Below, in pieces: positions 7,033 through 30,178 of a stretch of DNA of 64,000 nt. A model generated the notes under the pieces. The model was not told where the DNA came from, made no database searches, and saw only the letters and a program-made list of their open reading frames with translations. Position 1 is the stretch's first letter, and each line of letters begins with the position of its first letter. The position numbers and the translations under genes were made by a program. The DNA is from Escherichia phage VpaE1_ev78: the sequence record LR597663; one strand, 5' to 3'.

Positions 7033-7818
7033 ATGGGTATTGTAAAAATCATCAAAGGTGATATCTTTGATGCCTTTGATAAAGGCAAATTTGATATCAT
7101 TGGTCATGGTTGCAACTGTATGAATTTCATGGGTGCAGGTATTGCAGCAACTATTTCTAAGCGTTATCCAAAAGTGTATGATACTGACACAGAAGTTTAC
7201 CTGTTTGCAGGTGGCATTCGTCACAAACCCTGTGAAAATTTACTAGGTAATTTCTCTGTAGCACGTTTAAAACAAGGCCGTATAGCTAACCTTTACACCC
7301 AACTTCATACTGGTAAAGATGCCCGATACAGTGCTTTAGAGTCATCTTTGAAACAGCTTAACAGATACTGTGAAGTTAACCAGTTGAAGAAAGTTGGTCT
7401 ACCTATGATTGGTGCAGGTATCGGTGGGCTTGACCCTCAAGCTGTCACAGTTATCATTAATCAGGTGATGAAGAGTGTAGATGTTTATCTGTATGTCTAT
7501 GAAGCAAAAATGTATAATGAGTTACACTCAGGTTGGAAAAACTACTGTGAACCAGAATACTTTGCAGGTGTAGTTGTGTTCACAGATAACGAAGTTACCC
7601 TCTTCAGACGAAGAAAAGGTAAGATACATCAAAGTAACCCTCCGGTTGAAAAGATGTCTCTGAGTAACGCTCTAGTTACCCACCTGTCGAAGAGCAATCA
7701 CAGGATTGCAGTAACATTTGGCAGTGATGCAGATACTTATATCTATGCAAGAACTGATGAGGATATCGAGACAGTTTTCTCTTCACCAGAAGTTACCTTC
7801 TTAGACGCAAAGAACTAA
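7033..7818 (+). CDS. Macrodomain protein (ADP-ribose binding/processing) with C-terminal extension
   Basis: 261 aa; N-terminal about 160 aa matches macrodomain signatures: IIKGDIFDAF...IIGHGCNCMNFMGAGIAATI and VGLPMIGAGIGGLDP. Confidence 0.6.
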   Translation: MGIVKIIKGDIFDAFDKGKFDIIGHGCNCMNFMGAGIAATISKRYPKVYDTDTEVYLFAGGIRHKPCENLLGNFSVARLKQGRIANLYTQLHTGKDARYSALESSLKQLNRYCEVNQLKKVGLPMIGAGIGGLDPQAVTVIINQVMKSVDVYLYVYEAKMYNELHSGWKNYCEPEYFAGVVVFTDNEVTLFRRRKGKIHQSNPPVEKMSLSNALVTHLSKSNHRIAVTFGSDADTYIYARTDEDIETVFSSPEVTFLDAKN

Positions 7819-7889
7819 GAAACTCTGTAGAATATTCACAATAGACCAAGCCTTTCTTATCTGGTAAATTTTTCAGGTAAGGAGGGCTT

Positions 7890-8082
7890 TTTCATTTCAG
7901 AATTGTGCAGGTAGATTTCTATAGAGAAACCTGTAGAGAAAATATTGAACTCCAAAGAGAAAATTCATTTTCAAACTGTGCAGATAATCTCCAAAGAGCT
8001 TTTTCATTTTCAAAACGTGCAGACCCCGCTCAGGTCGGGCAAGAAAAATCATTTTAGATTTGTGCAGGTAGGTTTTTATAGA
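7890..8082 (+). repeat. Four tandem promoter-like repeats TTTCATTTTCA..TGTGCAGG(N9)TATAGA in a 0.5 kb leader
   Basis: TGTGCAG-type cores at about 7904, 7977, 8016 and 8061, each preceded by TTTCATTT; two copies followed 9 nt later by TATAGA. Confidence 0.5.
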
Positions 8083-8094
8083 GAGCCAGACCAA

Positions 8095-8124
8095 CCCCTC
8101 TCCCCCTCTTACTCCCCCTCTCCC
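8095..8124 (-). repeat. G-tract cluster (four runs of 4-5 G on the minus strand; C-tracts on plus)
   Basis: Plus strand cccctctccccctcttactccccctctcccc; conspicuous in an AT-rich genome. Confidence 0.5.
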
Positions 8125-8247
8125 CAAAAGTCAAGAGAAAAATTTGTAGCGGATTGAAAAATAATTCTTGATTTGTGTTCTGTTTTGTGGTAGTCGTGTG
8201 CGCCCGTTTCATTACAGTTTTGCCAAAAATATTTTTAAAATTTTTTC

Positions 8248-8276
8248 TTGACTCTTTGAACGTGGTTATCTAGTAT
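8248..8276 (+). promoter_or_regulatory. Sigma70-like promoter (TTGACT-17-TAGTAT) driving the small-ORF array
   Basis: Near-consensus -35 and -10 hexamers with 17 nt spacer, immediately upstream of a conserved 5' stem-loop. Confidence 0.6.
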
Positions 8277-8280
8277 TTGC

Positions 8281-8339
8281 ATCAACGGGGAGGGAATGAC
8301 CTTCCCCACTAAATAAAGTCCTAAACTGGAGATTCAAAA
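8281..8339 (+). promoter_or_regulatory. Cassette type A copy 1: 5'UTR stem-loop ggggagggaatgaccttcccc plus conserved RBS
   Basis: Near-identical about 60 nt unit recurs before six genes; GGAGA RBS 8 nt before ATG. Confidence 0.6.
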
Positions 8340-8720
8340 ATGGCATATCGCGCACCTAAATTCATCAATAAAGACAACTTTCGCAACGCACTGGAGAAGT
8401 CACTTGATGAAAATTTTAAAGGTAACATTATCGTTGTTCACGCATTCAATTTTAAGTATGATGTAAACGGGAATAGAATCAACCATTACACGGCAACCAT
8501 GTTAGATGGTACACTATCAAGTGAAAAAGCCGTACTGAATGCACTAGCAGGACGCGGAAAAGTATTAGTAAGATGCGATAAGCGACGTTATCAGGGTGGC
8601 GCATATGGTTATGATGATGCTGTTTATCATCTTGAAAATATGGGCTATAAAGTAGAAAAAGCTGGGGTATCGCAAATCATCGGGAGCGATGGTTATGTAA
8701 CAATCTTCAAAATTAACTGA
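8340..8720 (+). CDS. Hypothetical small early protein
   Basis: 126 aa ORF directly after type A cassette. Confidence 0.5.
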   Translation: MAYRAPKFINKDNFRNALEKSLDENFKGNIIVVHAFNFKYDVNGNRINHYTATMLDGTLSSEKAVLNALAGRGKVLVRCDKRRYQGGAYGYDDAVYHLENMGYKVEKAGVSQIIGSDGYVTIFKIN

Positions 8721-8721
8721 T

Positions 8722-8810
8722 AAAGTACTTTACAAGGGGCTTATAGTTCGATAGAGTAAGCCCCAGATAAAGAGCTTTACCACTCAATCCTAAATTGGAG
8801 AATCTGAAAA
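8722..8810 (+). promoter_or_regulatory. Cassette type B copy 1: TTTACA-17-TAGAGT promoter-like unit overlapping an 8 bp stem-loop, plus conserved RBS
   Basis: agtactttacaaggggctta...taagccccagataaagagctttaccactcaatcctaaattggaga recurs with small changes before six genes. Confidence 0.55.
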
Positions 8811-9104
8811 ATGGCTATTATCAAAAACGTTGTAATTACTGCAAAAACTCGTGATGACGCTCGCGTTATGGCTAAAAAGTTATGCGGGAAAGTTGTTGAC
8901 AATGGGAAAAAATCTGCTGTAAGATGGGGCGTAAAGGTTGATAAACAGTTGAAGTTAAAAAATTCACCGATAAACCTTTTTACATGTGTAAACACTATCG
9001 GGAAGACAAATGTATACACGAAAAAGGCATACATTAGACGCGTAGCATTAACATCCCCCATTCGTACAATGAGAGGTTATGCAAAGCTGAAAATTAACAA
9101 ATAA
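8811..9104 (+). CDS. Hypothetical small early protein
   Basis: 97 aa ORF after type B cassette. Confidence 0.5.
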   Translation: MAIIKNVVITAKTRDDARVMAKKLCGKVVDNGKKSAVRWGVKVDKQLKLKNSPINLFTCVNTIGKTNVYTKKAYIRRVALTSPIRTMRGYAKLKINK

Positions 9105-9105
9105 A

Positions 9106-9189
9106 GTACTTTACAGGGGGCTTAAAAGTTGATATCTTAAGCCCCAGATAAAGAGCTTTACCACTTAATCCTAAACTGGAGATTCAAAA
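9106..9189 (+). promoter_or_regulatory. Cassette type B copy 2
   Basis: Same conserved unit (tactttacagggggctta...taagccccagataaagagctttacc...ggaga). Confidence 0.55.
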
Positions 9190-9702
9190 ATGAAAACTGT
9201 AGACGCTACCTTTGAAGTTGTAAAAGAAAAATTTTCCATCATCTACGAAGCGGTAAATTGCTACGAAGCAAGCCATAATCTTGATAATTGGGAGTTTACA
9301 GATGACCATCAAGGCGGTGTGACTGTTAAAAATCCTAACTGTCAGCGTAATGATTTTAAATATGCAATACCTTTGCATTACAGCCTTAAACAGCTTTCAA
9401 GTGACTATGCAAAACAAGGCCGGGAAAATCCATCAAAAGAGGCTTACACAAGCTTACAGAAAGAATTAGAAAGAGATTTAGAGGCTTCAGAATACAACCT
9501 TGCCGCGAAAGTTGTCGATGCAAATGGTCAAACAATTTTAGAAAGTTTTTATCTTGGTTATGCTTTCGATTGGTGCTATCGTGACGGCGATGATTTAGAG
9601 GATAGACTAAAAGAAGAGGTGAACAATTCAGACGCAGAAACTGAAGTATTAGAACGTTTGGAATCGTTGAAAGATTCAGTGATGAATATCTTTAAGAACT
9701 AA
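9190..9702 (+). CDS. Hypothetical acidic protein
   Basis: 170 aa ORF after type B cassette. Confidence 0.5.
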   Translation: MKTVDATFEVVKEKFSIIYEAVNCYEASHNLDNWEFTDDHQGGVTVKNPNCQRNDFKYAIPLHYSLKQLSSDYAKQGRENPSKEAYTSLQKELERDLEASEYNLAAKVVDANGQTILESFYLGYAFDWCYRDGDDLEDRLKEEVNNSDAETEVLERLESLKDSVMNIFKN

Positions 9703-9705
9703 ATA

Positions 9706-9794
9706 GATTTCTTTACACGGGGTTATCAGGCTGGTAGGATAGCCCCAGATAGAGAGATTTATCAAATAAAGCCCTTAAACTAGGAGATTCTAAA
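9706..9794 (+). promoter_or_regulatory. Cassette type B, diverged copy
   Basis: tttctttacacggggtta...tagccccagatagagag...ctaggagattctaaaATG retains layout with sequence drift. Confidence 0.4.
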
Positions 9795-10091
9795 ATGAAA
9801 TTATCAAATCAAGTGCGTGAAAATCTGAGCAAATTACTCAACAAAATTGATTTCATTGAAACATCAAGGAATAGCCATGATGTTATGGAATGGTTACACG
9901 GCAAAATAAAAGGTCGTCGTGTAGTGATTTGCTTATGGAACAGTTGCAGGGAGTATAAAAAACCTGTATTGCAAGTCAATATCTATGATGACACTTTTAA
10001 AAGTCCAGTAAAGTCTAAAAGCGATTTATTAGAATCCTATGAGATAACTGTAAGTGGCAAAGTATCACGTAAAGAGGAAACACCATGTTAA
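9795..10091 (+). CDS. Hypothetical small early protein
   Basis: 98 aa ORF. Confidence 0.45.
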   Translation: MKLSNQVRENLSKLLNKIDFIETSRNSHDVMEWLHGKIKGRRVVICLWNSCREYKKPVLQVNIYDDTFKSPVKSKSDLLESYEITVSGKVSRKEETPC

Positions 10092-10417
10092 TGACTGGTA
10101 TCACTGCAATCATTGCCATTTTCGCGCTATATAAGGCATATAAAGCCTATAATCTAGCAAATAAGGCAATCACACAGCAGGTTAGCAATAACCTTGTAGA
10201 GAGCTTTCTAGGGCGTCTCAGTGATGAGCAAATAAAGCGGCTAGATATGAGCTTCAGATATAAAGCGAAAACCTATCAGATAAGTGACATCTTCAAAGAT
10301 GATTTTCAGTTAGTCGATGATTATAATTCTCTGATAAATGCTTTAAATGTCAGTGACTTAAAAGACTACTACGCTGTAATTGTTCAAGAGTTGAGCAAAC
10401 GAAAACAAAACTGTTGA
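10085..10417 (+). CDS. Hypothetical small membrane protein
   Basis: 110 aa; N-terminal hydrophobic segment LMTGITAIIAIFALY; stop codon lies inside the next promoter -35. Confidence 0.45.
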   Translation: MLMTGITAIIAIFALYKAYKAYNLANKAITQQVSNNLVESFLGRLSDEQIKRLDMSFRYKAKTYQISDIFKDDFQLVDDYNSLINALNVSDLKDYYAVIVQELSKRKQNC

Positions 10418-10442
10418 CACTGGTTTTTAGATAGATTAAATT
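10414..10442 (+). promoter_or_regulatory. Sigma70-like promoter (TTGACA-17-TAAATT)
   Basis: Consensus -35, 17 nt spacer, TAAATT -10, followed by type A stem-loop. Confidence 0.6.
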
Positions 10443-10447
10443 ACACA

Positions 10448-10506
10448 TCAACGGGGAGGGAATGACCTTCCCCACTAAATAAAGTCCTAAACTGGAGATT
10501 CAAAAA
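10448..10506 (+). promoter_or_regulatory. Cassette type A copy 2
   Basis: caacggggagggaatgaccttccccactaaataaagtcctaaactggagattcaaaaa. Confidence 0.6.
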
Positions 10507-10665
10507 ATGTTTTGTGCAGGTGATAAAGTTGTCTGGAATGATATAGATGACGGTTTATGTACGAAAGTTGTTGTTATCTTAGAAATTGATTATATCACTG
10601 GTGTTGCAACTGTAGCAGATAATGATATAATCTTTGATGTCTTAATTAGTGAACTGTCAAAATAA
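10507..10665 (+). CDS. Very small ORF (52 aa) missing from the ORF track
   Basis: ATG directly after a type A cassette with conserved RBS; open 52 codons to TAA. Confidence 0.4.
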   Translation: MFCAGDKVVWNDIDDGLCTKVVVILEIDYITGVATVADNDIIFDVLISELSK

Positions 10666-10690
10666 AATCCTTAAACTAGGAGCTTTTAAA

Positions 10691-10963
10691 ATGTATACTA
10701 CTAACAACGGTCGTACTTTAAATGTCACACTACGTCACTATGTGAACGGTGTAATGCACTTCGAGGATTTACAAGCTGAACAGCACATTTTGGATTGGCA
10801 AGTTGCAGGACTCCAAAAAACTGCTACAGGATACGGGAAAAAGATTCCAACCAGTTGGAAAGTATACTACGAAGGACGTTTGCGCAGAATTTATCAAGAT
10901 GTGCAAAGCAATAGCGCATCGAGTTACATTATAGTAAAAGGCAAAAAACTGCATTTAATGTAA
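10691..10963 (+). CDS. Hypothetical small early protein
   Basis: Start moved to ATG (MYTTNNG) after conserved RBS ctaggagcttttaaa; track start 10649 overlaps upstream ORF. Confidence 0.45.
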   Translation: MYTTNNGRTLNVTLRHYVNGVMHFEDLQAEQHILDWQVAGLQKTATGYGKKIPTSWKVYYEGRLRRIYQDVQSNSASSYIIVKGKKLHLM

Positions 10964-11049
10964 AGTACTTTACAAGGGGCTTGGAAGTTGATATCTTAAG
11001 CCCCAGATAAAGAGCTTTACCACTCAATCCTAAATTGGAGAACTTAAAA
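10964..11049 (+). promoter_or_regulatory. Cassette type B copy 3
   Basis: Conserved unit as copies 1-2. Confidence 0.55.
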
Positions 11050-11454
11050 ATGGCTATTAATAACCGTGAATTATCAATGTTAAAAGCACGTTTGACCGTT
11101 AATCGAATCAACATTATGACATCATCAGCGCCTGATGAGACATTGCACAACATTATCGGAAAGATTCAAAGCGTTATTTTAGACGTTGAAAACGTAAAAA
11201 GTTCATTGGCTGACGTTGCAGCAGGTATCACGCTAGACGGTGCGCAATATGAAATGTCCGACATGTTAGGCAAATCAAAGGTAATGAATAAAGAGCTTGA
11301 TTTAAAGATGTTCCGATTTGCTGTTAAAGTATGGCTATCCGTCGAGTATGACGCTAATTTTGCAATCGCTGATTTCTTTGCCACTTGGTTACAACGTAAT
11401 TTGACAAATCACGATTTTCGTGATGTCTGCGATGCAATTTATGCAGAACTCTAA
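11050..11454 (+). CDS. Hypothetical small early protein
   Basis: Start at ATG (MAINNREL) after conserved RBS; track start 11035 lies inside the cassette. Confidence 0.45.
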   Translation: MAINNRELSMLKARLTVNRINIMTSSAPDETLHNIIGKIQSVILDVENVKSSLADVAAGITLDGAQYEMSDMLGKSKVMNKELDLKMFRFAVKVWLSVEYDANFAIADFFATWLQRNLTNHDFRDVCDAIYAEL

Positions 11455-11462
11455 AAATTTTG

Positions 11463-11491
11463 TTGACACTGGTTTTTAGATAGATTAAATT
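11463..11491 (+). promoter_or_regulatory. Sigma70-like promoter (TTGACA-17-TAAATT), duplicate of 10414-10442
   Basis: Identical promoter sequence ttgacactggtttttagatagattaaatt. Confidence 0.6.
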
Positions 11492-11495
11492 ACAC

Positions 11496-11554
11496 ATCAA
11501 CGGGGAGGGAATGACCTTCCCCACTAAATAAAGTCCTAAACTGGAGATTCTAAA
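11496..11554 (+). promoter_or_regulatory. Cassette type A copy 3
   Basis: Conserved stem-loop and RBS unit. Confidence 0.6.
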
Positions 11555-11758
11555 ATGGCTATTATTAATGGTTTAACCATTGAAACTACACACATCAAAG
11601 ATATCAAAGTTGGCGATATAGTCCTTTCCCACGGCGTAGAAAAAACTGTCACTGCAAAGGATATCAAAGAGGATTCTTTCATGGGTAGGACTCTTTTCGG
11701 TGATTCTTATTGCTTAGGTTACCTTGCAGTTTTAAAAGTTGTCAAAAATAACAAATAA
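11555..11758 (+). CDS. Hypothetical small early protein
   Basis: 67 aa ORF after type A cassette. Confidence 0.45.
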   Translation: MAIINGLTIETTHIKDIKVGDIVLSHGVEKTVTAKDIKEDSFMGRTLFGDSYCLGYLAVLKVVKNNK

Positions 11759-11842
11759 AGTACTTTACAAGGGGCTTATAAGTCTGTAAAGTAAGCCCCA
11801 GATAAAGAGCTTTACACAATCCTTAAACTAGGAGATTAAAAA
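11759..11842 (+). promoter_or_regulatory. Cassette type B copy 4
   Basis: Conserved unit. Confidence 0.55.
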
Positions 11843-12091
11843 ATGATGAACTATTTCAATATCCCTGATACCTGCCGACTGTTGACACGAGAAGAAAACT
11901 TGGGTAAACCTTTTCTTTACCACATGCCAGATAACACACCAAAAACTTATAGTTACAATGTCAACCGTTTTACCGCATACGCTGCAAAGAACGGTTATAA
12001 GTTGGTCACTCAAAAAGTAATGCTGGTTACAATCGCTGACGAGGTTCCTACGGTTGCAGTTAAACTAATTTTCTCAAAGAAAGTTAAATAA
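11843..12091 (+). CDS. Hypothetical small early protein
   Basis: 82 aa ORF after type B cassette. Confidence 0.45.
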   Translation: MMNYFNIPDTCRLLTREENLGKPFLYHMPDNTPKTYSYNVNRFTAYAAKNGYKLVTQKVMLVTIADEVPTVAVKLIFSKKVK

Positions 12092-12178
12092 AGTACTTTA
12101 CAAGGGGCTTATAGTTCGATAAAGTAAGCCCCAGATAAAGAGCTTTACCACTAAATCCTTAAACTAGGAGATTCTAAA
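12092..12178 (+). promoter_or_regulatory. Cassette type B copy 5
   Basis: Conserved unit. Confidence 0.55.
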
Positions 12179-12721
12179 ATGAAATGCTATCACGGAACTA
12201 CTCAAGAAAATTTCCTCAACCTGATTAATAACGGTGATAAACCATCAGGCGCATGGAATTGTTCAGATATGGACGGCAATTTTTACGTGTATCCAGAAAA
12301 TAAAATCTATGGCGACGATGAGGAAGAAATAGCATCAGAGGGCATTCAGCAAGCTCTAGGCAATGCCACTATCACCGCAGCTTTTCAGATGAAGACTCAA
12401 AATATTGTTATCTTAGAACTCGATATTCCAGAGGATGAGCTAAATGATGATTATTCTTGTGATAATATGTCGAGTGTAGCAAGTTTTACAGAGTACTTTG
12501 ATGTAAATTGGATTAAAAAGGTCTATACAACAGAGTTTAACGCTATGTATTCACCTTTTTGTCTTCCTTCATTGGATAACCCAAATTTAAACTATCTTGA
12601 CGAGTCTCTGGAGCTTCTTGCTAAAAGTGTTCAACAGTCAGACAGTATTCAGGTTTTTTGTGACATCATGGATACACTAACAGGAAACATTGCAGAAGAG
12701 GATTTAAAGAGCTTTTTCTAA
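12179..12721 (+). CDS. Hypothetical highly acidic protein
   Basis: 180 aa ORF rich in Asp/Glu (DDEEEIASEG, EDELNDDYSCDN); followed by terminator. Confidence 0.5.
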   Translation: MKCYHGTTQENFLNLINNGDKPSGAWNCSDMDGNFYVYPENKIYGDDEEEIASEGIQQALGNATITAAFQMKTQNIVILELDIPEDELNDDYSCDNMSSVASFTEYFDVNWIKKVYTTEFNAMYSPFCLPSLDNPNLNYLDESLELLAKSVQQSDSIQVFCDIMDTLTGNIAEEDLKSFF

Positions 12722-12747
12722 AAACCTATGCAATCACCTTATAAACA

Positions 12748-12776
12748 CTAATCAGCCCCTTGTAGGGGCTTTTAGG
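12748..12776 (+). terminator. Rho-independent terminator
   Basis: cagcccc-ttgt-aggggct followed by TTT. Confidence 0.55.
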
Positions 12777-12787
12777 AGGCTTAAATC

Positions 12788-13030
12788 ATGCTTACAACCG
12801 TTTATCTCATCCTTTCTATTTGTAATGGCCATTCATGTGACTTTAAAGGGCTTGAAGAGTTTACAGGAAGTAAAGAAAATGCTATTCAGGTTTGCCAGAT
12901 AGCAAGACAAGACTATCCCGCCAGTGATGATATACAATGTTACTTTAAGACAGAAGATGAAGACGGTATCTATTTTGACAGCGTAGATGGTCAATATGAA
13001 ATCATCATTGAAAAGACTAGACAAGCCTGA
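12788..13030 (+). CDS. Hypothetical small early protein
   Basis: 80 aa ORF with AGGAGG RBS. Confidence 0.45.
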   Translation: MLTTVYLILSICNGHSCDFKGLEEFTGSKENAIQVCQIARQDYPASDDIQCYFKTEDEDGIYFDSVDGQYEIIIEKTRQA

Positions 13031-13051
13031 TAAAAGTCTGTAAATTACTAA

Positions 13052-13109
13052 TCAACGGGGAGGGAATAACCCCCCTACTAAATAAAGTCCTAAACTGGAG
13101 ATTCTAAAA
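13052..13109 (+). promoter_or_regulatory. Cassette type A copy 4 (variant stem)
   Basis: caacggggagggaataacccccctactaaataaagtcctaaactggagattctaaaa. Confidence 0.55.
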
Positions 13110-13451
13110 ATGGCTTATGTAACCGTAATTACCGATAAAGAGGGTTCATCTTGGTCAACTCAAGTAAGTGACAAGATGTCACCTATGCAGTGCCTAAAAT
13201 ACTTTGAACAGTGGAACAAAGGTGAGGACACAAGCCCCTTTCAAGTGATGCAGATTATCCATGTAGACAACGAAGGGAATAAAACGACGCTGAATAGTGA
13301 GTACTATGCAAGCCGTTTTGAAACAAGAAGTAAAACGATGAAGCTCTTACGTGAATCCGGTTATGCCCATATTGCCGCGCTAATCTGGGATGACCTGCTA
13401 AAAAGTCAGCGTATCAGCTATGTAAAACCTGAAAAAATATTCATCAGTTAA
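13110..13451 (+). CDS. Hypothetical small early protein
   Basis: 113 aa ORF after type A cassette. Confidence 0.5.
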   Translation: MAYVTVITDKEGSSWSTQVSDKMSPMQCLKYFEQWNKGEDTSPFQVMQIIHVDNEGNKTTLNSEYYASRFETRSKTMKLLRESGYAHIAALIWDDLLKSQRISYVKPEKIFIS

Positions 13452-13483
13452 TCAATAACTTACAAAAAACTTTTAAAAAAATG

Positions 13484-13512
13484 TTGACAATACCCCTTGA
13501 CATTGGTAACTT
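13484..13512 (+). promoter_or_regulatory. Sigma70-like promoter (TTGACA-17-TAACTT)
   Basis: Consensus -35 and 17 nt spacer. Confidence 0.5.
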
Positions 13513-13579
13513 TGTTCGAGGGGGTTTATCTAAAAGGATTCACTTAAAAGATTCTTTATAGATAAGCTTAAAAAATTGC

Positions 13580-13608
13580 TTGCAATCAGCTATCAAAACA
13601 AGTAAATT
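13580..13608 (+). promoter_or_regulatory. Sigma70-like promoter (TTGCAA-17-TAAATT)
   Basis: -35-like hexamer, 17 nt spacer, TAAATT -10, followed by type A stem-loop. Confidence 0.5.
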
Positions 13609-13610
13609 AC

Positions 13611-13668
13611 TAATCAACGGGAGGGATGACCTCCCCCACTAAATAAAATCCTAAACTGGAGATTCAAA
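13611..13668 (+). promoter_or_regulatory. Cassette type A copy 5
   Basis: caacgggagggatgacctcccccactaaataaaatcctaaactggagattcaaa. Confidence 0.55.
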
Positions 13669-13932
13669 ATGGAACACGTCGAACTGACCACAATTTTACA
13701 AATTGCAACCGACAAAGAGGATGTAGCATTATTCCACCGTATCGAAAGTGATTTGTTCAATGGTGAAATCATTAAAGAGTCTTACGAAGTTGTCGGATTC
13801 AAAGACGGTAAAGCGTTCGGATTCTTTGACCTCGACAAAGGCAAAGCGGTTACAAAATATGATGTTTTATCTTGTGAGATTCTGACAAAATACAACGAAA
13901 AAAGACTTGCAACATACACCAATATGCAGTAA
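13669..13932 (+). CDS. Hypothetical small early protein
   Basis: 87 aa ORF. Confidence 0.45.
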   Translation: MEHVELTTILQIATDKEDVALFHRIESDLFNGEIIKESYEVVGFKDGKAFGFFDLDKGKAVTKYDVLSCEILTKYNEKRLATYTNMQ

Positions 13933-13937
13933 ATTAC

Positions 13938-14012
13938 TAATCAACGGGGAGGGAATGACCTTCCCCACTAAATAAAGTCCTTAAACTACTTCCTAAACTG
14001 GAGATTCTAAAA
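13938..14012 (+). promoter_or_regulatory. Cassette type A copy 6 (with duplicated RBS segment)
   Basis: TAAATT -10 followed by conserved stem-loop; RBS region partly duplicated (cctaaact twice). Confidence 0.55.
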
Positions 14013-14261
14013 ATGGCAACTATCCGCGCAACTGTCAATGCTTATGGCTGTTATACTCTGGACGTTAAATTCGATATTGGTGGAACTGATGAATGCTTTT
14101 CATTAGTGAAGACAGTTATCAAGCAAGTCATTCCAGATTATAATCCTACTGATGACTTCTGGAAAGATGCTGTAAAAGAGGCATTAAACGATGAACATCA
14201 TTACCATTATTGGGGTGACTTAATTGTCTCCCTGTACTACAATAAACAAGGTTACAACTAA
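14013..14261 (+). CDS. Hypothetical small early protein
   Basis: 82 aa ORF, last gene of the plus-strand early array. Confidence 0.45.
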   Translation: MATIRATVNAYGCYTLDVKFDIGGTDECFSLVKTVIKQVIPDYNPTDDFWKDAVKEALNDEHHYHYWGDLIVSLYYNKQGYN

Positions 14262-14299
14262 TCGACGCAACGGGGCTAAATAGCCCCAGATACCTTCAC

Positions 14300-14330
14300 A
14301 GCCCCATTTAAGGGGCTTTTTTACGTCTAT
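14300..14330 (+). terminator. Rho-independent terminator ending the early plus-strand unit
   Basis: cagcccc-attta-aggggct followed by TTTTTTA. Confidence 0.6.
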
Positions 14331-14350
14331 GTAATAGCCTCTATACAATC

Positions 14351-14372
14351 CCTTTCCTTTCCTTTCCTTTCC
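14351..14372. repeat. Microsatellite (CCTTT)4
   Basis: cctttcctttcctttcctttcc read directly. Confidence 0.8.
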
Positions 14373-15904
14373 AGAATCTTACCAGACCTTAAAAGTAATA
14401 ACTCTATAGCTTACTCTATAACCTCTTATCAAATCAACTTAAATATAAGCCCATAACCCGAGAGGGAAGGGCAACCGTTTAAACGCTCTATAAAGCTCTA
14501 TAACGGCCTTATCAACCTAACTTAAGGGATTGCATTAACTCACCCTAAAAAGCCCTTTATAGAGCTTCCTATAGCCTTAAAAGAATCTTATAAGGGTGTA
14601 AGCTTTATCATCTCGTTAGTTATCTTGTGAACTACTAAAAAGGGCTATGAGATAGGAATCTATCGAATCCTATTGTTAGTGTCTTAAAAGTATGTTATAG
14701 GGGCTTTAAAGTTACTTCAAAGTTGCTTAAAAGGAGCTATAAAGTTACGTAAATGCTAGCCCCCTTAACATTTTCTTAACAATTTCTTAACAATCCCTAC
14801 ATAGTTATGCTTTTAAGGCACTTGTTAGCAACTTGTTAGCCCCTTGTTAAATCTCTGTTAAGACCACGTAAAAGCCTTGTAAGAGTCTTTGACATAGCCT
14901 TAAAAGCTCCTGTAAAGCCCTATAAAGAGGTATCTGTACAGTTGGGGGATAGATACTAGGAAGAGACTTAAAAGAGCTTATAAAGAGCTATAGAGAGCTT
15001 TTAAGAGGTATGTTTAAAGAATCACTAAGAAAGGAAAGGGAACGATAAGAAAAGAAGTAGTGACCATGTTAATAGCTTGTTAAAAAGATTAAACACTTGT
15101 TAGAAACTTGTTAATTATCTTAACAAAATAACTCTTAAAAATTAACTTGTTAGCTCTTGTTAGTCATCTGTTAAGATTCTGTAAAGCCTATTCAGTACTT
15201 GTTAGAAATCTGTTACAGCCTTGTTAGTTCTGTTAAGAATCTGTTAAGACCTTTGAAGAGTTGTTAAGAAGGTGTTAGAACTGTTAAGAGATTGTTAAGG
15301 ATATTTTAAAATTTTGCAAAGTACTTGTAAGGGAGCTGTTAAGGGCTACCAAGCAGATATACATCCTAATCAGATATTTTTGAGTTCCTTCAAAGACCCT
15401 AAAAAATGACTTGACAGTCCTATTTTATAAAAATTTTAAGATTCTGAATAATTACCTATACAGCCTTTTAAAAATACAGGTAATAACAGGCTTATAAGAT
15501 ACCTTGTTAGTACCGTGTTAGACCTTGTGAGATAAGGTCTGTAAAGATATTCCTGTTAAGTTTGTTAAAACAGTCTATATAGAGGCTTAGTAATACCTAG
15601 TGAACACCTATAGAGAGTATCATAGCTAACATAGAGATTAAGAGGTGTATAGGAGCTTCTAAGAAGGTGTAGAGGGATGGTTAAGGTGATTGTATAGGTT
15701 GTTAAGAAGGCTTGTTAGAGGGCTTGTTAGAAGGGTTATACAGAGGGGCTATTAAGACCACTAGATAGTTACTAAGATACTATATAGTACTATATAACTA
15801 TATAGAGAGTAAGATTAAGAAGGTTGTTAAGAAGGATAGATACTTTATTCACATATGATGGTGACCCAGAGGTTGGGACAACCGATAAAATTTTATAAAA
15901 AATA

Positions 15905-15935
15905 TAAATTTCGTAAATTTTACTCAATAAAAAGC
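15905..15935 (-). terminator. Rho-independent terminator for the minus-strand unit
   Basis: Minus-strand reading agcctcc-ttaatt-gggggct followed by TTTTTATT. Confidence 0.5.
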
Positions 15936-15963
15936 CCCCAATTAAGGAGGCTCTTAAGATATT

Positions 15964-26405: not shown

Positions 26406-26482
26406 CTCTGTTTAGCTCAGCTTGGTAGAGCGTTCCGTTTGGGGCGGTAAGGCCGGAGGTTCAAGTCCTCCAACAGAGACCA
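26406..26482 (+). tRNA. tRNA-Pro (anticodon TGG), CCA encoded
   Basis: 7 bp acceptor ctctgtt/aacagag, D-loop with GG, T-arm ggagg-ttcaagt-cctcc; hand-folded. Confidence 0.55.
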
Positions 26483-26489
26483 AATTAAT

Positions 26490-26567
26490 GTTCCAGTAGA
26501 CAAAATGGTAAAGTCACCACTCTTTCAAAGTGGATATCTGAGGGTTCAAATCCCTTCTGGAACGCCA
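26490..26567 (+). tRNA. tRNA-Glu (TTC)
   Basis: Acceptor gttccag/ctggaac, anticodon stem ccact/agtgg with loop ctTTCaa, T-loop ttcaaat, CCA encoded. Confidence 0.6.
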
Positions 26568-26574
26568 GTTTTGA

Positions 26575-26648
26575 CAGAAGACCAATTGCAGCAAACTTAA
26601 TCTTATTCATCTGAAGGTAAATCGGACAAAGAAGAGATTTGGTCTGGT
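26575..26648 (+). repeat. Inverted-repeat-bracketed element, copy 1 (cagaagacca ... tggtctgg)
   Basis: Conserved 5' end cagaagacc(a/g)..t.cagcaa and 3' end ggtctgg shared by four elements; ends are mutually complementary. Confidence 0.55.
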
Positions 26649-26658
26649 CATTAAGAAT

Positions 26659-26735
26659 TGCGGGTATAGAGAAAGGGCGTCTCACATGTCTCATTAGCAT
26701 GGTATCGGCAGGTTCGACTCCTGCACCCGCCTCCA
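26659..26735 (+). tRNA. tRNA with CAT anticodon (Met/Ile2/initiator type); acceptor register uncertain
   Basis: D-stem gaga/tctc, anticodon stem catgt/gcatg with loop ctCATta, T-arm gcagg-ttcgact-cctgc; 1-72 appears mismatched. Confidence 0.4.
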
Positions 26736-26741
26736 AATTTA

Positions 26742-26806
26742 CAGAAGACCGTTTACAGCAATATTTATTAAATTTTTAGCGGAAAAAATTGAAAGATACG
26801 GTCTGG
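26742..26806 (+). repeat. Inverted-repeat-bracketed element, copy 2
   Basis: 5' acagaagaccgtttacagcaa identical to copy 4; 3' cggtctggtaa. Confidence 0.55.
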
Positions 26807-26819
26807 TAACACTAAACAT

Positions 26820-26896
26820 GGTTAGGAAGCACATAAGGTATGTGCGGTCGCCTGTTAAGCGAATGGCACAGGGTTCGAATCCCTGACTAACCGCCA
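26820..26896 (+). tRNA. tRNA-Asn (GTT)
   Basis: D-stem gcac/gtgc, anticodon loop ctGTTaa, T-arm caggg-ttcgaat-ccctg, CCA encoded. Confidence 0.55.
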
Positions 26897-26905
26897 AATT
26901 TAAAT

Positions 26906-26993
26906 GTGTCGTTATCCCGTAGATGGTAGCGGTGGGGACTGTAAATCCCTTGTCATTGAGACTCGGTAGGTTCGACTCCTACACGGCACACCA
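26906..26993 (+). tRNA. tRNA-Tyr (GTA), long variable arm
   Basis: Acceptor gtgtcgt/acggcac, anticodon loop ctGTAaa, 88 nt with extra arm, T-arm gtagg-ttcgact-cctac, CCA encoded. Confidence 0.6.
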
Positions 26994-26998
26994 ATAAA

Positions 26999-27076
26999 GG
27001 TTATGTAGTTTAATTTGGTTAAAATACTCCCCTGTCACGGGAGATGATGAGGGTTCAAATCCCTTCGTAACCGCCA
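26999..27076 (+). tRNA. tRNA-Asp (GTC)
   Basis: Acceptor ggttatg/cgtaacc, anticodon stem ctccc/gggag with loop ctGTCac, T-loop ttcaaat, CCA encoded. Confidence 0.65.
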
Positions 27077-27137
27077 ATTTTGAGAGGGCTATTTAGCCCC
27101 TCCCTTAAAGAGTTCTTACGAGTATTCTTTAAAGGAG

Positions 27138-27211
27138 CAGAAGACCAAATACAGCAAGTTATTTAAAATTTCAAGCCAATTTAATTTTGAAAAATTTAAA
27201 ACTTGGTCTGG
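27138..27211 (+). repeat. Inverted-repeat-bracketed element, copy 3
   Basis: cagaagaccaaatacagcaag ... cttggtctgg. Confidence 0.5.
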
Positions 27212-27224
27212 CTCAACAAATTTA

Positions 27225-27355
27225 CAGAAGACCGTTTACAGCAAAACTTAACAATCTATTTCTCCGGTAAAGAAAAGGCGAAGGTTCGATTCCTTCACTC
27301 GGCAGATGTCGAGTTGGTGTAATGGTAGTACTTAAGATGATAAACAACGGTCTGG
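27225..27355 (+). ncRNA. Inverted-repeat-bracketed element, copy 4, carrying tRNA-like fragments (candidate structured ncRNA or decayed tRNA)
   Basis: Same conserved ends as copy 2; interior has a T-arm gaagg-ttcgatt-ccttc (27280-27296), a 7 bp hairpin (27297-27314) and a D-arm-like tggtgtaatggtagtac, but no anticodon arm. Confidence 0.4.
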
Positions 27356-27504
27356 TAATTATCTTTGTAGATAAGTTATTAAGCTTACCTGTGAGTATGC
27401 GACCACAAAGGGTGAAAGGGTAAATTCTAGATTTAAACCCAAAAAGGCACATCGCTACAGACCTTAAGCAAGTCTGGGTAGCTTATCTACAAAGATAATT
27501 TAAT

Positions 27505-27580
27505 GGAAGTGTAGCAGAATGGTGATGCGGCAGACTTTTAATCTGACAGGCGATGGGTTCGAATCCCTCCACTTCTACCA
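27505..27580 (+). tRNA. tRNA-Lys (TTT)
   Basis: Acceptor ggaagtg/cacttct, anticodon loop ctTTTaa, T-loop ttcgaat, CCA encoded; T-stem appears short. Confidence 0.5.
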
Positions 27581-27584
27581 ATAT

Positions 27585-27661
27585 GGTTCAGTCGCAGATA
27601 AGGTAATGCAAGGGTCTCATAAGCCCTATGAATGTGGGTTCGATTCCCATCTGAACCTCCA
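27585..27661 (+). tRNA. tRNA-Met (CAT)
   Basis: Acceptor ggttcag/ctgaacc, anticodon stem agggt/gccct with loop ctCATaa, T-arm gtggg-ttcgatt-cccat, CCA encoded. Confidence 0.6.
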
Positions 27662-27662
27662 A

Positions 27663-27738
27663 GCTGGTATAGTTAAGAAGGTTATAACACTCCCCTGATA
27701 AGGGAACATCGGTGGTTCGATTCCACCTACCAGTACCA
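27663..27738 (+). tRNA. tRNA-Ile (GAT)
   Basis: Acceptor gctggta/taccagt, D-stem gtta/taac, anticodon loop ctGATaa, T-arm ggtgg-ttcgatt-ccacc, CCA encoded. Confidence 0.65.
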
Positions 27739-27753
27739 ATTTCAATAAAGTTG

Positions 27754-27782
27754 TTGACATTGAGATGTGACTACTTTATAGT
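27754..27782 (+). promoter_or_regulatory. Sigma70-like promoter (TTGACA-17-TATAGT) inside tRNA region
   Basis: Consensus -35, 17 nt spacer, TATAGT -10. Confidence 0.55.
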
Positions 27783-27986
27783 AACCTTAGTTTTCGTTGC
27801 GTAGCGTCTATTTTGCAAATTTAAAATAAATGCAAACGACAATGTTTTTCTGGCAGTAGCTTGATAGGCTAAACACCAGTGAGGTCTTCCAATCCCTCAT
27901 CAAAGAATTTGGCGTACTCGCCCACGGTATGATTAATAAGGTGGGCATCTTTAAGGGCTTTCTAAGAGAGTCTTTAAAGATAATTA

Positions 27987-28068
27987 CGGGGCGTATCTCA
28001 GCGGTCTTCTAAACCGCCGTTAACCGAGTAAGTGGAGTATGCGGGTTCGAGTCCTGCCGCCTCGACCA
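27987..28068 (+). tRNA. Atypical tRNA-like gene (no clear D-arm; anticodon-type loop ctTCTaa); identity unresolved
   Basis: Acceptor cggggcg/cgcctcg, T-arm gcggg-ttcgagt-cctgc and CCA present; only one perfect 5 bp stem-loop in the body, 23 nt between it and the T-arm. Confidence 0.3.
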
Positions 28069-28082
28069 ATTTTGGAGAAATC

Positions 28083-28430
28083 ATGAAAACTTGTATTAGG
28101 TGCAAACTTAGCAAGGATGAAAATGATTTCTACATGAAAGATGGTAGGAGAACTCATTCATACTGTAAAAAGTGTGTTAATGAGCAAACCATAGAAAGAC
28201 AAAGAGCACTTAAACTCTCAGCTATTGAGTACAAAGGTGGGGTTTGTCACGATTGTGGTAAAAAGTATCATCCAGCAGTGTATGACTTCCATCATTTGAA
28301 TCCTTCAGAGAAAGATTTTAACATTGGTCATAGGAAAAGCCTTAAGTTCTCTCAAGAACTAAAAGATGAACTTGACAAATGTGTTTTGCTATGTTCAAAT
28401 TGCCATAGGGTAAGACATGCAAAGTATTAG
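28083..28430 (+). CDS. HNH endonuclease with N-terminal zinc finger
   Basis: Start at ATG (MKTCIRCK) with GGAG RBS; CxxC...CxxC then DFHHLNP...LLCSNCHRVRH (HNH motif); track start 28032 lies in the upstream tRNA. Confidence 0.6.
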   Translation: MKTCIRCKLSKDENDFYMKDGRRTHSYCKKCVNEQTIERQRALKLSAIEYKGGVCHDCGKKYHPAVYDFHHLNPSEKDFNIGHRKSLKFSQELKDELDKCVLLCSNCHRVRHAKY

Positions 28431-28573
28431 TTAGCAGATTACTTAGACGACCTAAGCGGGTCTTCCTGTAGGGAGGTGGTCTGTATCTCATGTTTTCCAG
28501 AACATGTAAATAATCTGAGAAGAAGCTTGACAGTGTTGAGATAACAGGGTAAGCTTCGAATTATAGTTTTAAT

Positions 28574-28644
28574 AGGGGTGAGCTATGGCAGCAATAGAGT
28601 CTCCAAAATTCTTGATTAGAGTTCGAATCTCTACACCCCTGCCA
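28574..28644 (+). tRNA. tRNA-Trp (CCA)
   Basis: Acceptor aggggtg/cacccct, anticodon loop ctCCAaa, T-arm tagag-ttcgaat-ctcta, CCA encoded. Confidence 0.5.
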
Positions 28645-28658
28645 GAACAGGTGCTTGT

Positions 28659-29063
28659 ATGAAACTTTGTAGAAAATGTTCTCAAGAAAAGCCTTTAAGC
28701 TGCTTTCATAAAAGAGGTAATGGCTATCAGTCTGCTTGCAAAGATTGTAAAGCTAAGTACTCAGCAAAGAGATACAAAGAAGACCCTACTTATAAAGCAA
28801 AAAGAAAAGTTAGGGCAAAATATGACAAAAAGAGGAACAGAGAGTTCCTTAGTAGATATAAAAAGTTTTGCAAATGCAGAATATGTGGCGAATCTGAGCC
28901 AGTAGCTTTGGATTTTCATCACTTAGACCCTAAAGAGAAAGATTTTGCTCCAAGCAATCTTAAAACTTACTCTAGGGGCACTATTAAGCGTGAAGTCCGT
29001 AAGTGTGTTGTGCTTTGTTCAAACTGTCATAGGAAAGTTCATGAAGGACTGTTAAGTATTTAA
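28659..29063 (+). CDS. HNH endonuclease with N-terminal zinc finger (paralog of 28083-28430)
   Basis: 134 aa; CRKCSQEK...CKDC zinc finger and DFHHLDPKEKDF...VLCSNCHRKVH HNH motif. Confidence 0.6.
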   Translation: MKLCRKCSQEKPLSCFHKRGNGYQSACKDCKAKYSAKRYKEDPTYKAKRKVRAKYDKKRNREFLSRYKKFCKCRICGESEPVALDFHHLDPKEKDFAPSNLKTYSRGTIKREVRKCVVLCSNCHRKVHEGLLSI

Positions 29064-29076
29064 CAGTCTTATTAGG

Positions 29077-29164
29077 GGTAGGTAGCGGCTAATGGTAGCC
29101 AAACTGTCTTGAAAACAGTTGCCACTGTAGAGATACGGTGAGGGTTCGACTCCTTTACTTACCG
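29077..29164 (+). tRNA. tRNA-Ser (TGA), long variable arm
   Basis: Acceptor ggtaggt/acttacc, anticodon stem actgt/acagt with loop ctTGAaa, 88 nt with extra arm. Confidence 0.6.
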
Positions 29165-29323
29165 CCTAATAAGATTTAAAGCCAAGCTTCATTCGGATGT
29201 TGCTTTGGTATCCCGCGTGTATTGTTGTACACACTGATAAAGCACCTAGTAGGTGTCACGGAGAAGAGATAATATCAAGCTCTCCAAAGGTTCTAGTCAC
29301 CGGATTAAACAAGACTATGCAAA

Positions 29324-29350
29324 GACCTTTTTAGGTCTTTTTAGAGGGCT
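29324..29350 (+). terminator. Terminator-like hairpin
   Basis: aaagacc-ttttta-ggtcttt followed by TTAG. Confidence 0.4.
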
Positions 29351-29421
29351 TCTAAGGTTATTACAGCTTGTTGTGGAACCTTGTTGCTTAGGTTCTTAGA
29401 AGTTCTCTAAAAAGATTTAAT

Positions 29422-29499
29422 GGGAGATTGACGGTAATTGGTAAACCTATCTCGCTTAGAACGAGATGTTTGAGGGTTCGAATCCCTTGTCTCCTACCA
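29422..29499 (+). tRNA. tRNA with anticodon TAG (Leu-type) but short variable loop
   Basis: Acceptor gggagat/gtctcct, perfect anticodon stem tctcg/cgaga with loop ctTAGaa, T-arm gaggg-ttcgaat-ccctt, CCA encoded; only 5 nt variable region. Confidence 0.45.
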
Positions 29500-29506
29500 A
29501 ATTAAT

Positions 29507-29582
29507 GCAGGTGTAGCAAAATGGTTATGCGGCTGACTCTTAATCAGTAAGACGATGGGTTCAATTCCCTCCACCTGTACCA
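29507..29582 (+). tRNA. tRNA-Lys (CTT)
   Basis: Acceptor gcaggtg/cacctgt, anticodon loop ctCTTaa, T region gatgggttcaattccctcc like the Lys(TTT) gene, CCA encoded. Confidence 0.5.
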
Positions 29583-29587
29583 AAAAT

Positions 29588-29663
29588 GGGGTCATAGTTT
29601 ATATGGTTAAAATTCGAGTTTTGCAAACTTGGGAACTGAGTTCAATTCTCAGTGACTCCACCA
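29588..29663 (+). tRNA. tRNA-Ala (TGC)
   Basis: Acceptor ggggtca/tgactcc, anticodon stem cgagt/acttg with loop ttTGCaa, T-arm ctgag-ttcaatt-ctcag, CCA encoded. Confidence 0.6.
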
Positions 29664-29669
29664 ATTAGT

Positions 29670-29744
29670 GCATCCATAGTTTAAACGGGAAAATTACAGT
29701 CTTCCAAACTGAGGTTGAGGGTTCGATTCCCTCTGGATGCTCCA
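29670..29744 (+). tRNA. tRNA-Gly (TCC)
   Basis: Acceptor gcatcca/tggatgc, anticodon loop ctTCCaa, T-arm gaggg-ttcgatt-ccctc, CCA encoded. Confidence 0.6.
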
Positions 29745-29751
29745 AATTAAT

Positions 29752-29827
29752 GCTCCTATCGTATAATTGGCTATTACGGTTGCCTTGTAAGTAACTTATC
29801 AGGGTTCGAATCCTTGTGGGAGCACCA
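29752..29827 (+). tRNA. tRNA-Thr (TGT)
   Basis: Acceptor gctccta/tgggagc, anticodon stem gttgc/gtaac with loop ctTGTaa, T-loop ttcgaat, CCA encoded. Confidence 0.6.
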
Positions 29828-29924
29828 ATTTAGAGGTCAAGTGAAAGACCGCTTTGAGTCAACTGAAGACCGTAACAAATTCCACGGAGTTGAGTTAGCG
29901 GCACAACTCCAGACCTCTTCTCAC

Positions 29925-29999: not shown

Positions 30000-30000
30000 T

Positions 30001-30078: not shown

Positions 30079-30083
30079 ATTTT

Positions 30084-30159: not shown

Positions 30160-30178
30160 ATTTAAAGAGGCTATTTAG

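Follow-up and report, generated by a model that had tools for sequence, protein, structure and literature searches.

The 64,000-nucleotide (nt) stretch of Escherichia phage VpaE1_ev78 analysed here (sequence record LR597663; the window) contains an island of small genes, nearly every one of which is preceded by a copy of one of two short cassettes, type A and type B, each combining a predicted promoter, a hairpin and a ribosome-binding site (RBS). These cassettes very probably serve both as expression adaptors and as portable homology through which single genes are gained, lost and replaced in register. The evidence consists of the repeats themselves, their conserved promoter elements, their covarying hairpins, a polymorphism among close relatives that is bounded by cassettes, chimeric cassettes at the junctions, and conservation across three genera. 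From these patterns we infer promoter activity, start sites, roles for the hairpins in RNA and the timing of expression.

The island and its cassettes

A megablast search with positions 8200-14400 identifies the phage as a Felixounavirus of the Ounavirinae (a Felix O1-like myovirus), bearing out a preliminary description of this DNA that had placed it outside the T4-like phages. The search returned 257 phage records, nearly all of them Escherichia, Salmonella or Shigella Felixounavirus, and the top matches have 91-94% identity with an uneven coverage of 52-95%. The first gene of the window is rIIA. The island spans ~5.8 kb between two intrinsic terminators found by a terminator scan, and it holds 15 small open reading frames (ORFs) of 52-180 amino acids (aa), all on the + strand within 8340..14261, in line with the roughly 15 tiny ORFs first described. 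No Pfam family matched any of the 15 proteins, and PHROGs returned unknown-function families only, with none at all for the 52-aa product; the 15 genes are ORFans. These results speak neither for nor against a role in host takeover or anti-defence, which the preliminary description linked with such genes in T4-type phages. No endonuclease gene was found among them in the Pfam and PHROG searches. The 52-aa gene had been thought visible only through its cassette, which proved wrong: it is an ordinary ATG ORF with an RBS, and it is annotated in all five annotated relatives that carry it.

Bounds and genes of the island:
7848..7889, + strand, left-bounding intrinsic terminator, 17-bp stem and T-run, ends the upstream operon; t13 of the Felix O1 paper
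8340-8720, 8811-9104, 9190-9702, 9795-10091 and 10085-10417, + strand, genes 1-5
10507-10665, 10691-10963, 11050-11454, 11555-11758 and 11843-12091, + strand, genes 6-10
12179-12721, 12788-13030, 13110-13451, 13669-13932 and 14013-14261, + strand, genes 11-15
14300..14317, + strand, right-bounding intrinsic terminator, AGCCCC...GGGGCT and TTTTTT; t23 of the Felix O1 paper

Cassettes were called by a repeat finder, by pattern searches and by hidden Markov models (HMMs) built from the copies, and all three agree on six units each of types A and B and on 13 RBS modules, all on the + strand between 8.24 and 14.02 kb; the preliminary count of units was the same. The RBS module, CT(T)AAAYT(A)GGAG, is shared by both types, and each of its 13 copies runs up to the ATG of a small ORF. 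Units are 85-100 nt long, uniformly oriented and 78-100% identical to one another. All 12 end at an ATG. Type B units all start at or just past the upstream stop codon, and type A units start 0-130 nt past it, apart from the sixth, which starts within the 3' end of the upstream gene. The first unit exists where the preliminary description saw one, although it begins with its -35 at 8248 and not at 8281.

Cassettes and related junctions (SD, Shine-Dalgarno sequence):
8248..8339, + strand, type A cassette 1, -35 TTGACT 8248-8253, -10 TAGTAT 8271-8276, hairpin 8287-8307, SD GGAG, ATG 8340
8721..8810, + strand, type B cassette 1, upstream stop, -35 TTTACA 8729-8734, -10 TAGAGT 8752-8757 in the loop, upper stem 8736-8764, lower stem ~8721-8733 with 8768-8780, fold z = -3.9, SD, ATG 8811
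9102..9189, + strand, type B cassette 2, TTTACA 9110, -10 TATCTT 9133-9138, upper stem 9117-9145, ATG 9190
9700..9794, + strand, type B cassette 3 (divergent), TTTACA 9712, -10 TAGGAT 9735-9740, stem GGGGTTATC/GATAGCCCC 9719-9746, ATG 9795
10414..10506, + strand, type A cassette 2, -35 TTGACA 10414, -10 TAAATT to 10442, hairpin 10453-10473, ATG 10507
10660..10690, + strand, RBS-only module, AAATAAAATCCTTAAACTAGGAGC..., between the 52-aa gene and the gene at ATG 10691
10961..11049, + strand, type B cassette 4, TTTACA 10969, -10 TATCTT 10992-10997, stem 10976-11004, ATG 11050
11463..11554, + strand, type A cassette 3, -35 TTGACA 11463, -10 TAAATT to 11491, hairpin 11502-11522, ATG 11555
11756..11842, + strand, type B cassette 5, TTTACA 11764, -10 TAAAGT 11787-11792, stem 11771-11799, ATG 11843
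12089..12178, + strand, type B cassette 6, TTTACA 12097, -10 TAAAGT 12120-12125, stem 12104-12132, fold z = -4.3, ATG 12179
12754..12770, read on the + strand, terminator-like junction, GC hairpin AGCCCCTTGTAGGGGCT then TTTTAGGAGG, T-run entering the SD of gene 12788
13018..13109, + strand, type A cassette 4 (variant), -35 TAGACA 13018, -10 TAAATT to 13046, weaker hairpin 13057-13076, ATG 13110
13580..13668, + strand, type A cassette 5 (chimera), -35 TTGCAA 13580-13585, -10 TAAATT 13603-13608, hairpin 13619-13637, ATG 13669
13907..14012, + strand, type A cassette 6, -35 TTGCAA 13907-13912 within the upstream gene, -10 TAAATT 13930-13935, hairpin 13946-13966, ATG 14013

Shuffles of the window give 0 expected matches for either hairpin pattern, and the HMM search found no significant copy outside the island in the 64-kb window or in the other 29.6 kb of the related phage ASO1A. 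Every IMG/VR contig matching type B is 54-94 kb long, most of them ~87-90 kb, like Felix O1-like genomes. In a sigma70 scan, 10 of the 12 units score at least 9/12. Three junctions between island genes lack a type A or B unit: a 7-nt gene overlap (10085-10091), the RBS-only module, where a breakpoint separates genomes with the 52-aa gene from those without it, and the terminator-like hairpin at 12754-12770, which with the T-run entering the SD extends over 12754-12780. The terminator scan reports this last hairpin on the - strand only, the + strand reading being our own; an element resembling this junction occurs in phage Maleficent.

Type A units place a hairpin just after a predicted promoter

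All six type A copies have a -35-like hexamer (TTGACT once, TTGACA twice, TAGACA once, TTGCAA twice), a 17-bp spacer and TAAATT or TAGTAT as the -10; the preliminary description, in which type A units "usually" followed a sigma70-like -10, had understated this regularity. The -10 is followed by a ten-base stretch (consensus ACnnATCAAC) and a G-rich/C-rich hairpin, after which ACTAAATAAAGTCC leads into the RBS module. In all 164 unique variants collected from relatives, TAnnnT stands 10 nt ahead of the hairpin, and about 160 of them have TTGnnn or TAGACA at a distance of 17 bp upstream. Stems and loops differ among the 62 hairpin variants, the stems ranging from GGGA/TCCC to GGGGAGGG/CCTTCCCC, yet every variant folds (median -12.3 kcal/mol). 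No U-tract follows the hairpin; ACTAAATAAAG / ACUAAAUAAAG comes next.

Stem-loops at the 5' terminus of an mRNA, for example in the ompA leader, protect it by their geometry from 5'-end-dependent decay. Given the usual 7-nt distance from the -10, the type A transcript is predicted to start ~3-4 nt before the hairpin, and this is where its likeness to the ompA-type stabilisers lies, with the difference that the type A start site is a prediction.

Sixth in the series, the type A cassette at 13907..14012 has a partly duplicated RBS module, with 13 nt repeated at 13980-13992 (TCCTTAAACTACT). The duplication looks like a scar of unequal recombination between two RBS-module variants.

Type B units enclose a predicted promoter in a covarying RNA hairpin

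Type B units run from the upstream stop through TAAAGTAC, TTTACA, one base, GGGGCTTA, a loop bearing TAnnnT, TAAGCCCC and AGATAAAGAGCTTTAC to the RBS module. The TTTACA-17-TA...T arrangement overlapping a hairpin, as first described, stands; the 8-bp length given for the hairpin does not. In the predicted RNA fold, a lower stem of 11 bp, interrupted by an A/A mismatch, is separated by a 3x3 internal loop (CAN/AGA) from an upper stem of 9 bp, which is capped by a loop of ~11 nt; energies are -24.6 to -27.6 kcal/mol and z scores -3.4 to -4.3. The promoter thus lies within a hairpin of ~20 bp whose stem covers the spacer and the -10. Of 158 unique type B variants from relatives, 145 have TAnnnT exactly 17 bp past TTTACA, and in most of the others the hexamer is displaced by 1 bp. 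The loop is variable outside TAnnnT, and 76 of the 158 have an extended -10 TG.

Several observations indicate that the pairing itself is maintained. RNAalifold, given 18 type B copies from Felixounavirus, Mooglevirus and Kolesnikvirus, independently returned the same three-tier structure; 98.4% of the cells in this alignment pair, against 32-58% when the partners are slid, and the covariation score exceeds that of all 500 shuffles. Across the 158 variants, upper-stem positions 3 (GC/UA), 7 (UA/AU), 8 (AU/UA) and 9 (four pair types) covary, as do lower-stem positions 5 (GC/UA) and 6 (UG/UA/CG). The divergent third cassette preserves a 13-bp lower stem through compensatory and G.U changes. More than 250 stem cells in the 158 variants are G.U or U.G and only about a dozen are A.C, so it is on the + strand alone that the pairing holds well, and a structure in the RNA is the simplest explanation.

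The type B start is predicted at the A of AGATAAAG, just beyond the upper stem, so that only transcripts reading through from upstream could form the hairpin. The leader made from the type B promoter itself is unstructured (z = 0.0). No U-tract follows this hairpin either; AGATAAAGAG / AGAUAAAGAG comes next. A permissive Rfam search of 7.7-14.9 kb gave a single, chance-level match, and no family fits the type B hairpin.

The 3' arm of the hairpin (e.g. 8758-8764) also places a GC-rich discriminator (AAGCCCC) downstream of the -10, ahead of the predicted start, in every type B promoter. GC-rich discriminators in E. coli are associated with short-lived open complexes and sensitivity to ppGpp and supercoiling. 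The type B discriminator could tie island expression to host physiology.

Genes come and go with single cassettes

To the window we added the island of 12 other Felixounavirus genomes. The 13 genomes have 13 distinct architectures, which answers the question of synteny raised in the preliminary description: the locus is far from invariant among relatives. Its proposal of recombinational shuffling holds for gain, loss and allele replacement in register, but not for gene order, which is collinear and never permuted. Each gene gained or lost travels with exactly one cassette. Sixty of 73 internal homology breakpoints fall inside cassettes (±5 nt), which make up 23% of the region, and eight more lie just 3 nt outside this margin.

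Where a gene is missing, the junction cassette is a chimera of the two cassettes that flank it elsewhere, and the crossover lies within the hairpin of a type A unit, within the initial 20 nt of type B, or in the shared RBS module, the last giving an A/B hybrid. A 176-aa gene present in the other 12 genomes is absent from the window, and the cassette at 13580-13668 has a 5' part matching the relatives' cassette before that gene and a 3' part matching their cassette before the 13669 gene, with the switch within the hairpin. In KEP1, which has no 11843 gene, the switch falls within the initial ~20 nt of a type B unit; VpaE1_ev035 is missing the 11555 gene and has a type A unit fused to a type B RBS module; and in DE17 the 9190 gene is replaced by a different gene with RBS modules at both limits.

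Sequence identity varies in the same gene-by-gene manner. Against one relative it jumps from 66-78% to 98-100% between adjacent genes, the full span being 66-100%; for VpaE1_ev035 the values run 99.7, 99.3, 96.3 ... 91.4, 77.8, 98.3 ... 71.5%. The 52-aa gene (10507-10665) is 99.4-100% identical, with 0-1 nt differences, in all seven carriers and absent from the other six genomes, while the genes flanking it in the carriers are 89-98% identical to the window. This suggests a very recent lateral spread of a single gene.

Two type A copies, 10412-10506 and 11461-11555, are 99% identical over 95 nt, and the genes downstream of them are unrelated, which rules out tandem gene duplication as their source. 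Within three genomes this pair is 99-100% identical, compared with 92% between orthologous copies. Genome-wide concerted evolution of the cassettes is unsupported, as this single type A pair is the only one that looks homogenised.

The cassettes are conserved across three genera

Citrobacter phage Maleficent (Mooglevirus) has the same island, with A and B units ahead of nearly every gene. Its cassettes are 82-88% identical to those of the window and its genes 70-79%, a comparison indicating that the cassettes are under purifying selection. B-type units also occur in Erwinia phage phiEa21-4 (Kolesnikvirus), where the stem is a compensated GGTGTTTAT/ATAAGCACC (GGTG/CACC); this phage has an RBS-module consensus of its own and further promoter-in-hairpin variants. 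The kind of cassette is therefore conserved over three genera, Felixounavirus, Mooglevirus and Kolesnikvirus.

Relation to known systems

The nearest parallel is with the promoter-early stem-loops (PeSLs) of the T4-type phages RB49/phi1, T4/PST and KVP40/nt-1 (Arbiol et al. 2010, PMC2839356; Comeau et al. 2014, PMC4122927), the analogy drawn in the preliminary description, and it holds at every point that sequence can test: anatomy, ORFan setting and variation. A PeSL consists of an upstream stop, an AT-rich stretch, sigma70 -35 and -10 boxes, a GGGG...CCCC stem-loop between the boxes or over the -10, an SD and an ATG (PMC2839356). The type B layout is identical point by point, and type A differs solely in the placement of its stem, which stands just after the -10, past the predicted start and in the 5' untranslated region (UTR). 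PeSLs cluster among ORFans in hyperplastic regions and recombine together (PMC2839356, PMC4122927); here too the region is plastic and dense in ORFans, and close relatives differ by indels and replacements with crossovers within the units. The T4/PST PeSL consensus TTTACW-N17-TAYWAT resembles the TTTACA-N17-TAnnnT of type B, a likeness that is generic, as is that of the G(n)-loop-C(n) stems.

The cassettes also differ from PeSLs in several respects. They form two discrete, tightly conserved sub-families with a shared RBS module able to serve as a crossover site, and all copies sit in a single island. The ~20-bp three-tier hairpin of type B, with its covariation and + strand G.U pairs, argues for a role at the RNA level. 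For the RB49 PeSLs, promoter and attenuator activity and mini-circles have been demonstrated, whereas the promoters of the cassettes described here are predicted. The phage lineage, Ounavirinae, is unrelated and the consensus likeness generic, and we therefore regard the cassettes as the same kind of system and not as members of a homologous family.

In the archaeal halovirus HF2, two classes of short intergenic repeats act as promoters (PMC8707807), there archaeal ones; the part of that account available to us does not mention a hairpin, an RBS module or gene shuffling. The Felix O1 genome paper lists a 57-bp sequence (type B) and a 39-bp sequence (the type A promoter) merely as "direct repeats", and states that the organisation of transcription is unknown. 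In GenBank, ASO1A has its type A hairpins labelled as WebGeSTer terminators, KhF1 has several labelled on the opposite strand, and some type A promoters are annotated as promoters. In the literature we searched, no paper connects Felix O1-like phages with PeSLs, and the cassettes are not described beyond the repeat list and generic sigma70 predictions.

How the cassettes may work

We propose that nearly every ORFan of the island carries its own standard expression adaptor. Type A would supply a predicted sigma70 promoter (-35 TTGnnn, 17 bp, -10 TAnnnT), a stable GGGG...CCCC hairpin, a fixed leader and the RBS module, with the hairpin protecting the mRNA 5' end and marking the cistron boundary in read-through RNA. 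Type B would be dual-coded: a predicted promoter on the DNA, while the same 60 nt form the three-tier ~20-bp hairpin in read-through RNA. That hairpin may insulate cistrons, whether it attenuates read-through or serves as a site of processing or 3' protection. Because the units are 78-100% identical and co-oriented, homologous recombination between them, within one genome or between co-infecting relatives, would delete, insert or replace single genes in register, and every recombinant would keep one intact, possibly chimeric, cassette and stay expressed. The island is a hyperplastic region, one probably belonging to the early or middle part of the phage programme.

For type B a more specific reading can be offered, tentatively and as one that we would not favour over its absence: a natural dual-coded insulator, in which the DNA promoter is combined with an RNase III-type processing hairpin in read-through RNA. 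The RNase III hairpins of T7 early genes are likewise intercistronic in read-through RNA of a phage early operon and likewise have no U-tract, and type B shares with them two stems of ~10 bp with a small internal loop between. The resemblance is general only: the 11-bp stem, 3x3 loop and 9-bp stem match a T7-type site in shape alone, and T7 sites, unlike type B, have no promoters. A cut at the 3' side of the type B loop, as in T7, would leave a 3' hairpin on the upstream mRNA, which would retain it as protection. Initiation, predicted at the A of AGAUAAAG, and processing within the internal loop (3'-side AGA) would give a near-identical 5' UTR downstream, and it is this convergence of processing and initiation on the same leader that makes an RNase III-like role, which type B may have, attractive. 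If this is true, A, B and the RBS module would be a plug-and-play standard throughout the Ounavirinae, convergent with the T4-type PeSLs, by which any acquired ORF would be expressed independently of context and exchangeable by homologous recombination.

Alternative explanations

The same patterns could be produced by conserved regulatory sequences alone, with no special recombination, if indels bounded by cassettes are the sole survivors of selection. Purifying selection on the cassettes agrees with this, as do orthologous slots that are closer to each other than paralogous copies are, the lack of permuted gene order, and one indel at a microhomology outside a cassette. We nevertheless think it improbable, as selection of this kind does not account for junction cassettes that are exact single units with halves matching two different flanking cassettes, for A/B hybrids joined at the shared RBS module, for cassette pairs 99-100% identical beside unrelated genes, or for a gene-by-gene mosaic in which one gene is 100% identical across genomes otherwise ~92% identical. 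It is somewhat less far-fetched, though still unlikely, that the hairpins act as rho-independent terminators, so that every gene forms its own transcription unit. The ASO1A and KhF1 annotations say so, and RB49 PeSL stem-loops cut the expression of a downstream lacZ (PMC2839356). Yet neither the type A nor the type B hairpin has the U-tract that this requires, and a consensus terminator scan that detects the terminators at 7848 and 14300 flags none of the 12 units. We read the hairpins called terminators in some GenBank records, which have no U-tract, as parts of the cassettes.

The type B palindromes, TAAAGTACTTTA over the -35 and TAAAGAGCTTTA at +4 to +15, might instead be operators of a dimeric repressor of phage or host, with the lower stem as a by-product. 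In favour of this, the promoter lies between the two sites, the first of which forms a perfect palindrome of 12 bp, and most lower-stem positions are invariant. What makes this doubtful in our eyes, and a poor prospect overall, is the behaviour of the divergent copies (9700-9794 and several relatives), in which site 1 is not palindromic while G-C to U-A changes and G.U pairs keep the two sites complementary. Least credible, to the point of being negligible, is a self-spreading origin of the repeats as mobile elements like miniature inverted-repeat transposable elements or repetitive extragenic palindromes, or as footprints of homing endonucleases. The repeats are short, structured and multi-copy, and HNH and GIY-YIG endonucleases are encoded elsewhere in the phage genome, but the copies occupy one locus in one orientation, always from a stop codon to the next ATG, without terminal inverted repeats, target duplications or copies elsewhere in the genome, and the island itself has no endonuclease gene.

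Some points weigh against reading the cassettes as adaptors and portable homology. The enrichment of breakpoints could, taken alone, be explained by selection against indels that damage genes, and the counts are not of independent events, since the 12 relatives and the IMG/VR fragments are related to one another. GEP101 and ESCO45 have lost cassette B3 and the 9795 gene with one end outside the cassettes, at a TAAA microhomology. Paralogous cassettes within a genome (identity 0.78-0.85) are no closer than non-orthologous ones between genomes (0.79-0.85), and exchange must therefore be occasional and not a continuous homogenisation. On the side of RNA, six of the 11 lower-stem pairs of type B are invariant and overlap the -35, so their constancy may partly reflect conservation at the DNA level. 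As neither hairpin has a U-tract, classical termination is not predicted. End-point reverse-transcription PCR in Felix O1 found island genes 16, 20, 21 and 22 at 5 min and 14, 17, 19 and 23 at 25 min; only some of the genes are thus early, and the result gives weak support to an early-to-middle expression of the island. The literature searched has no transcription-start, promoter-activity or RNA-end data for any Felix O1-like phage.

Implications

Cassettes of the PeSL type had so far been documented only in T4-like phages, and the same logic now appears in the unrelated Felix O1 group, with a sharper sequence definition and direct evidence from junctions. This suggests that the cassette logic is a general, convergent way for large lytic phages to keep swappable accessory genes expressed. 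Felix O1-like phages are widely used as candidates for therapy and biocontrol, and the island is the main difference among close isolates, which makes it a natural place to seek genes for host range, takeover and counter-defence. For engineering, the cassettes offer ready-made parts and sites for gene insertion. A covarying RNA hairpin around a promoter is, besides, a testable case of overlapping DNA and RNA codes.

Neighbouring regions

Directly upstream of the island, at 7033-7818 (+), lies a gene for a 261-aa protein with a Macro domain (Pfam PF01661, E = 5e-7). It belongs to PHROG 335, "phosphatase"; its homologues in many phages, T4-like ones among them, are weak (~30-38% identity), and the Maleficent protein is 65% identical. 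As an ADP-ribose binder or remover beside the island, it might counter a host defence based on ADP-ribosylation. Between the left terminator and the first cassette, 7890-8240 is ~350 bp of non-coding DNA that is up to 98% identical in relatives, with four copies of a ~35-nt repeat, TCATTTnnAnnnnGTGCAG(G/A)TA..., and a polypyrimidine run, CCCCTCTCCCCCTCTTACTCCCCCTCTCCCC, at ~8095-8125.

A further non-coding region, 13452-13579, separates the 13110 gene from the fifth type A cassette. It has tandem TTGACA boxes (TTGACAATACCCCTTGACATTGGTAACTT), the second within a CCCC...GGGG hairpin that is followed by another long hairpin (fold z = -3.8). Relatives are up to 98% identical here, more than in the flanking genes, and the region is also present in Mooglevirus; it could be a strong promoter with its leader, or a small RNA.

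Beyond the right terminator, 14330-15960 is ~1.6 kb without an ORF of at least 90 aa, at the point where genes switch from the + to the - strand. Over 20 copies of CTTGTTA(G/A), frequently spaced at 11 bp, occur there together with inverted TTAACAA, CTATAAAG-type repeats and a CCTTT run, and a repeat_region is annotated here in phage skuden. The region resembles an array of iterons or protein-binding sites and may be a replication origin. Further along the window, 26 tRNA genes lie in several clusters at 26406-32097 (+), slightly more than the 22 that the Felix O1 paper gives for Felix O1.

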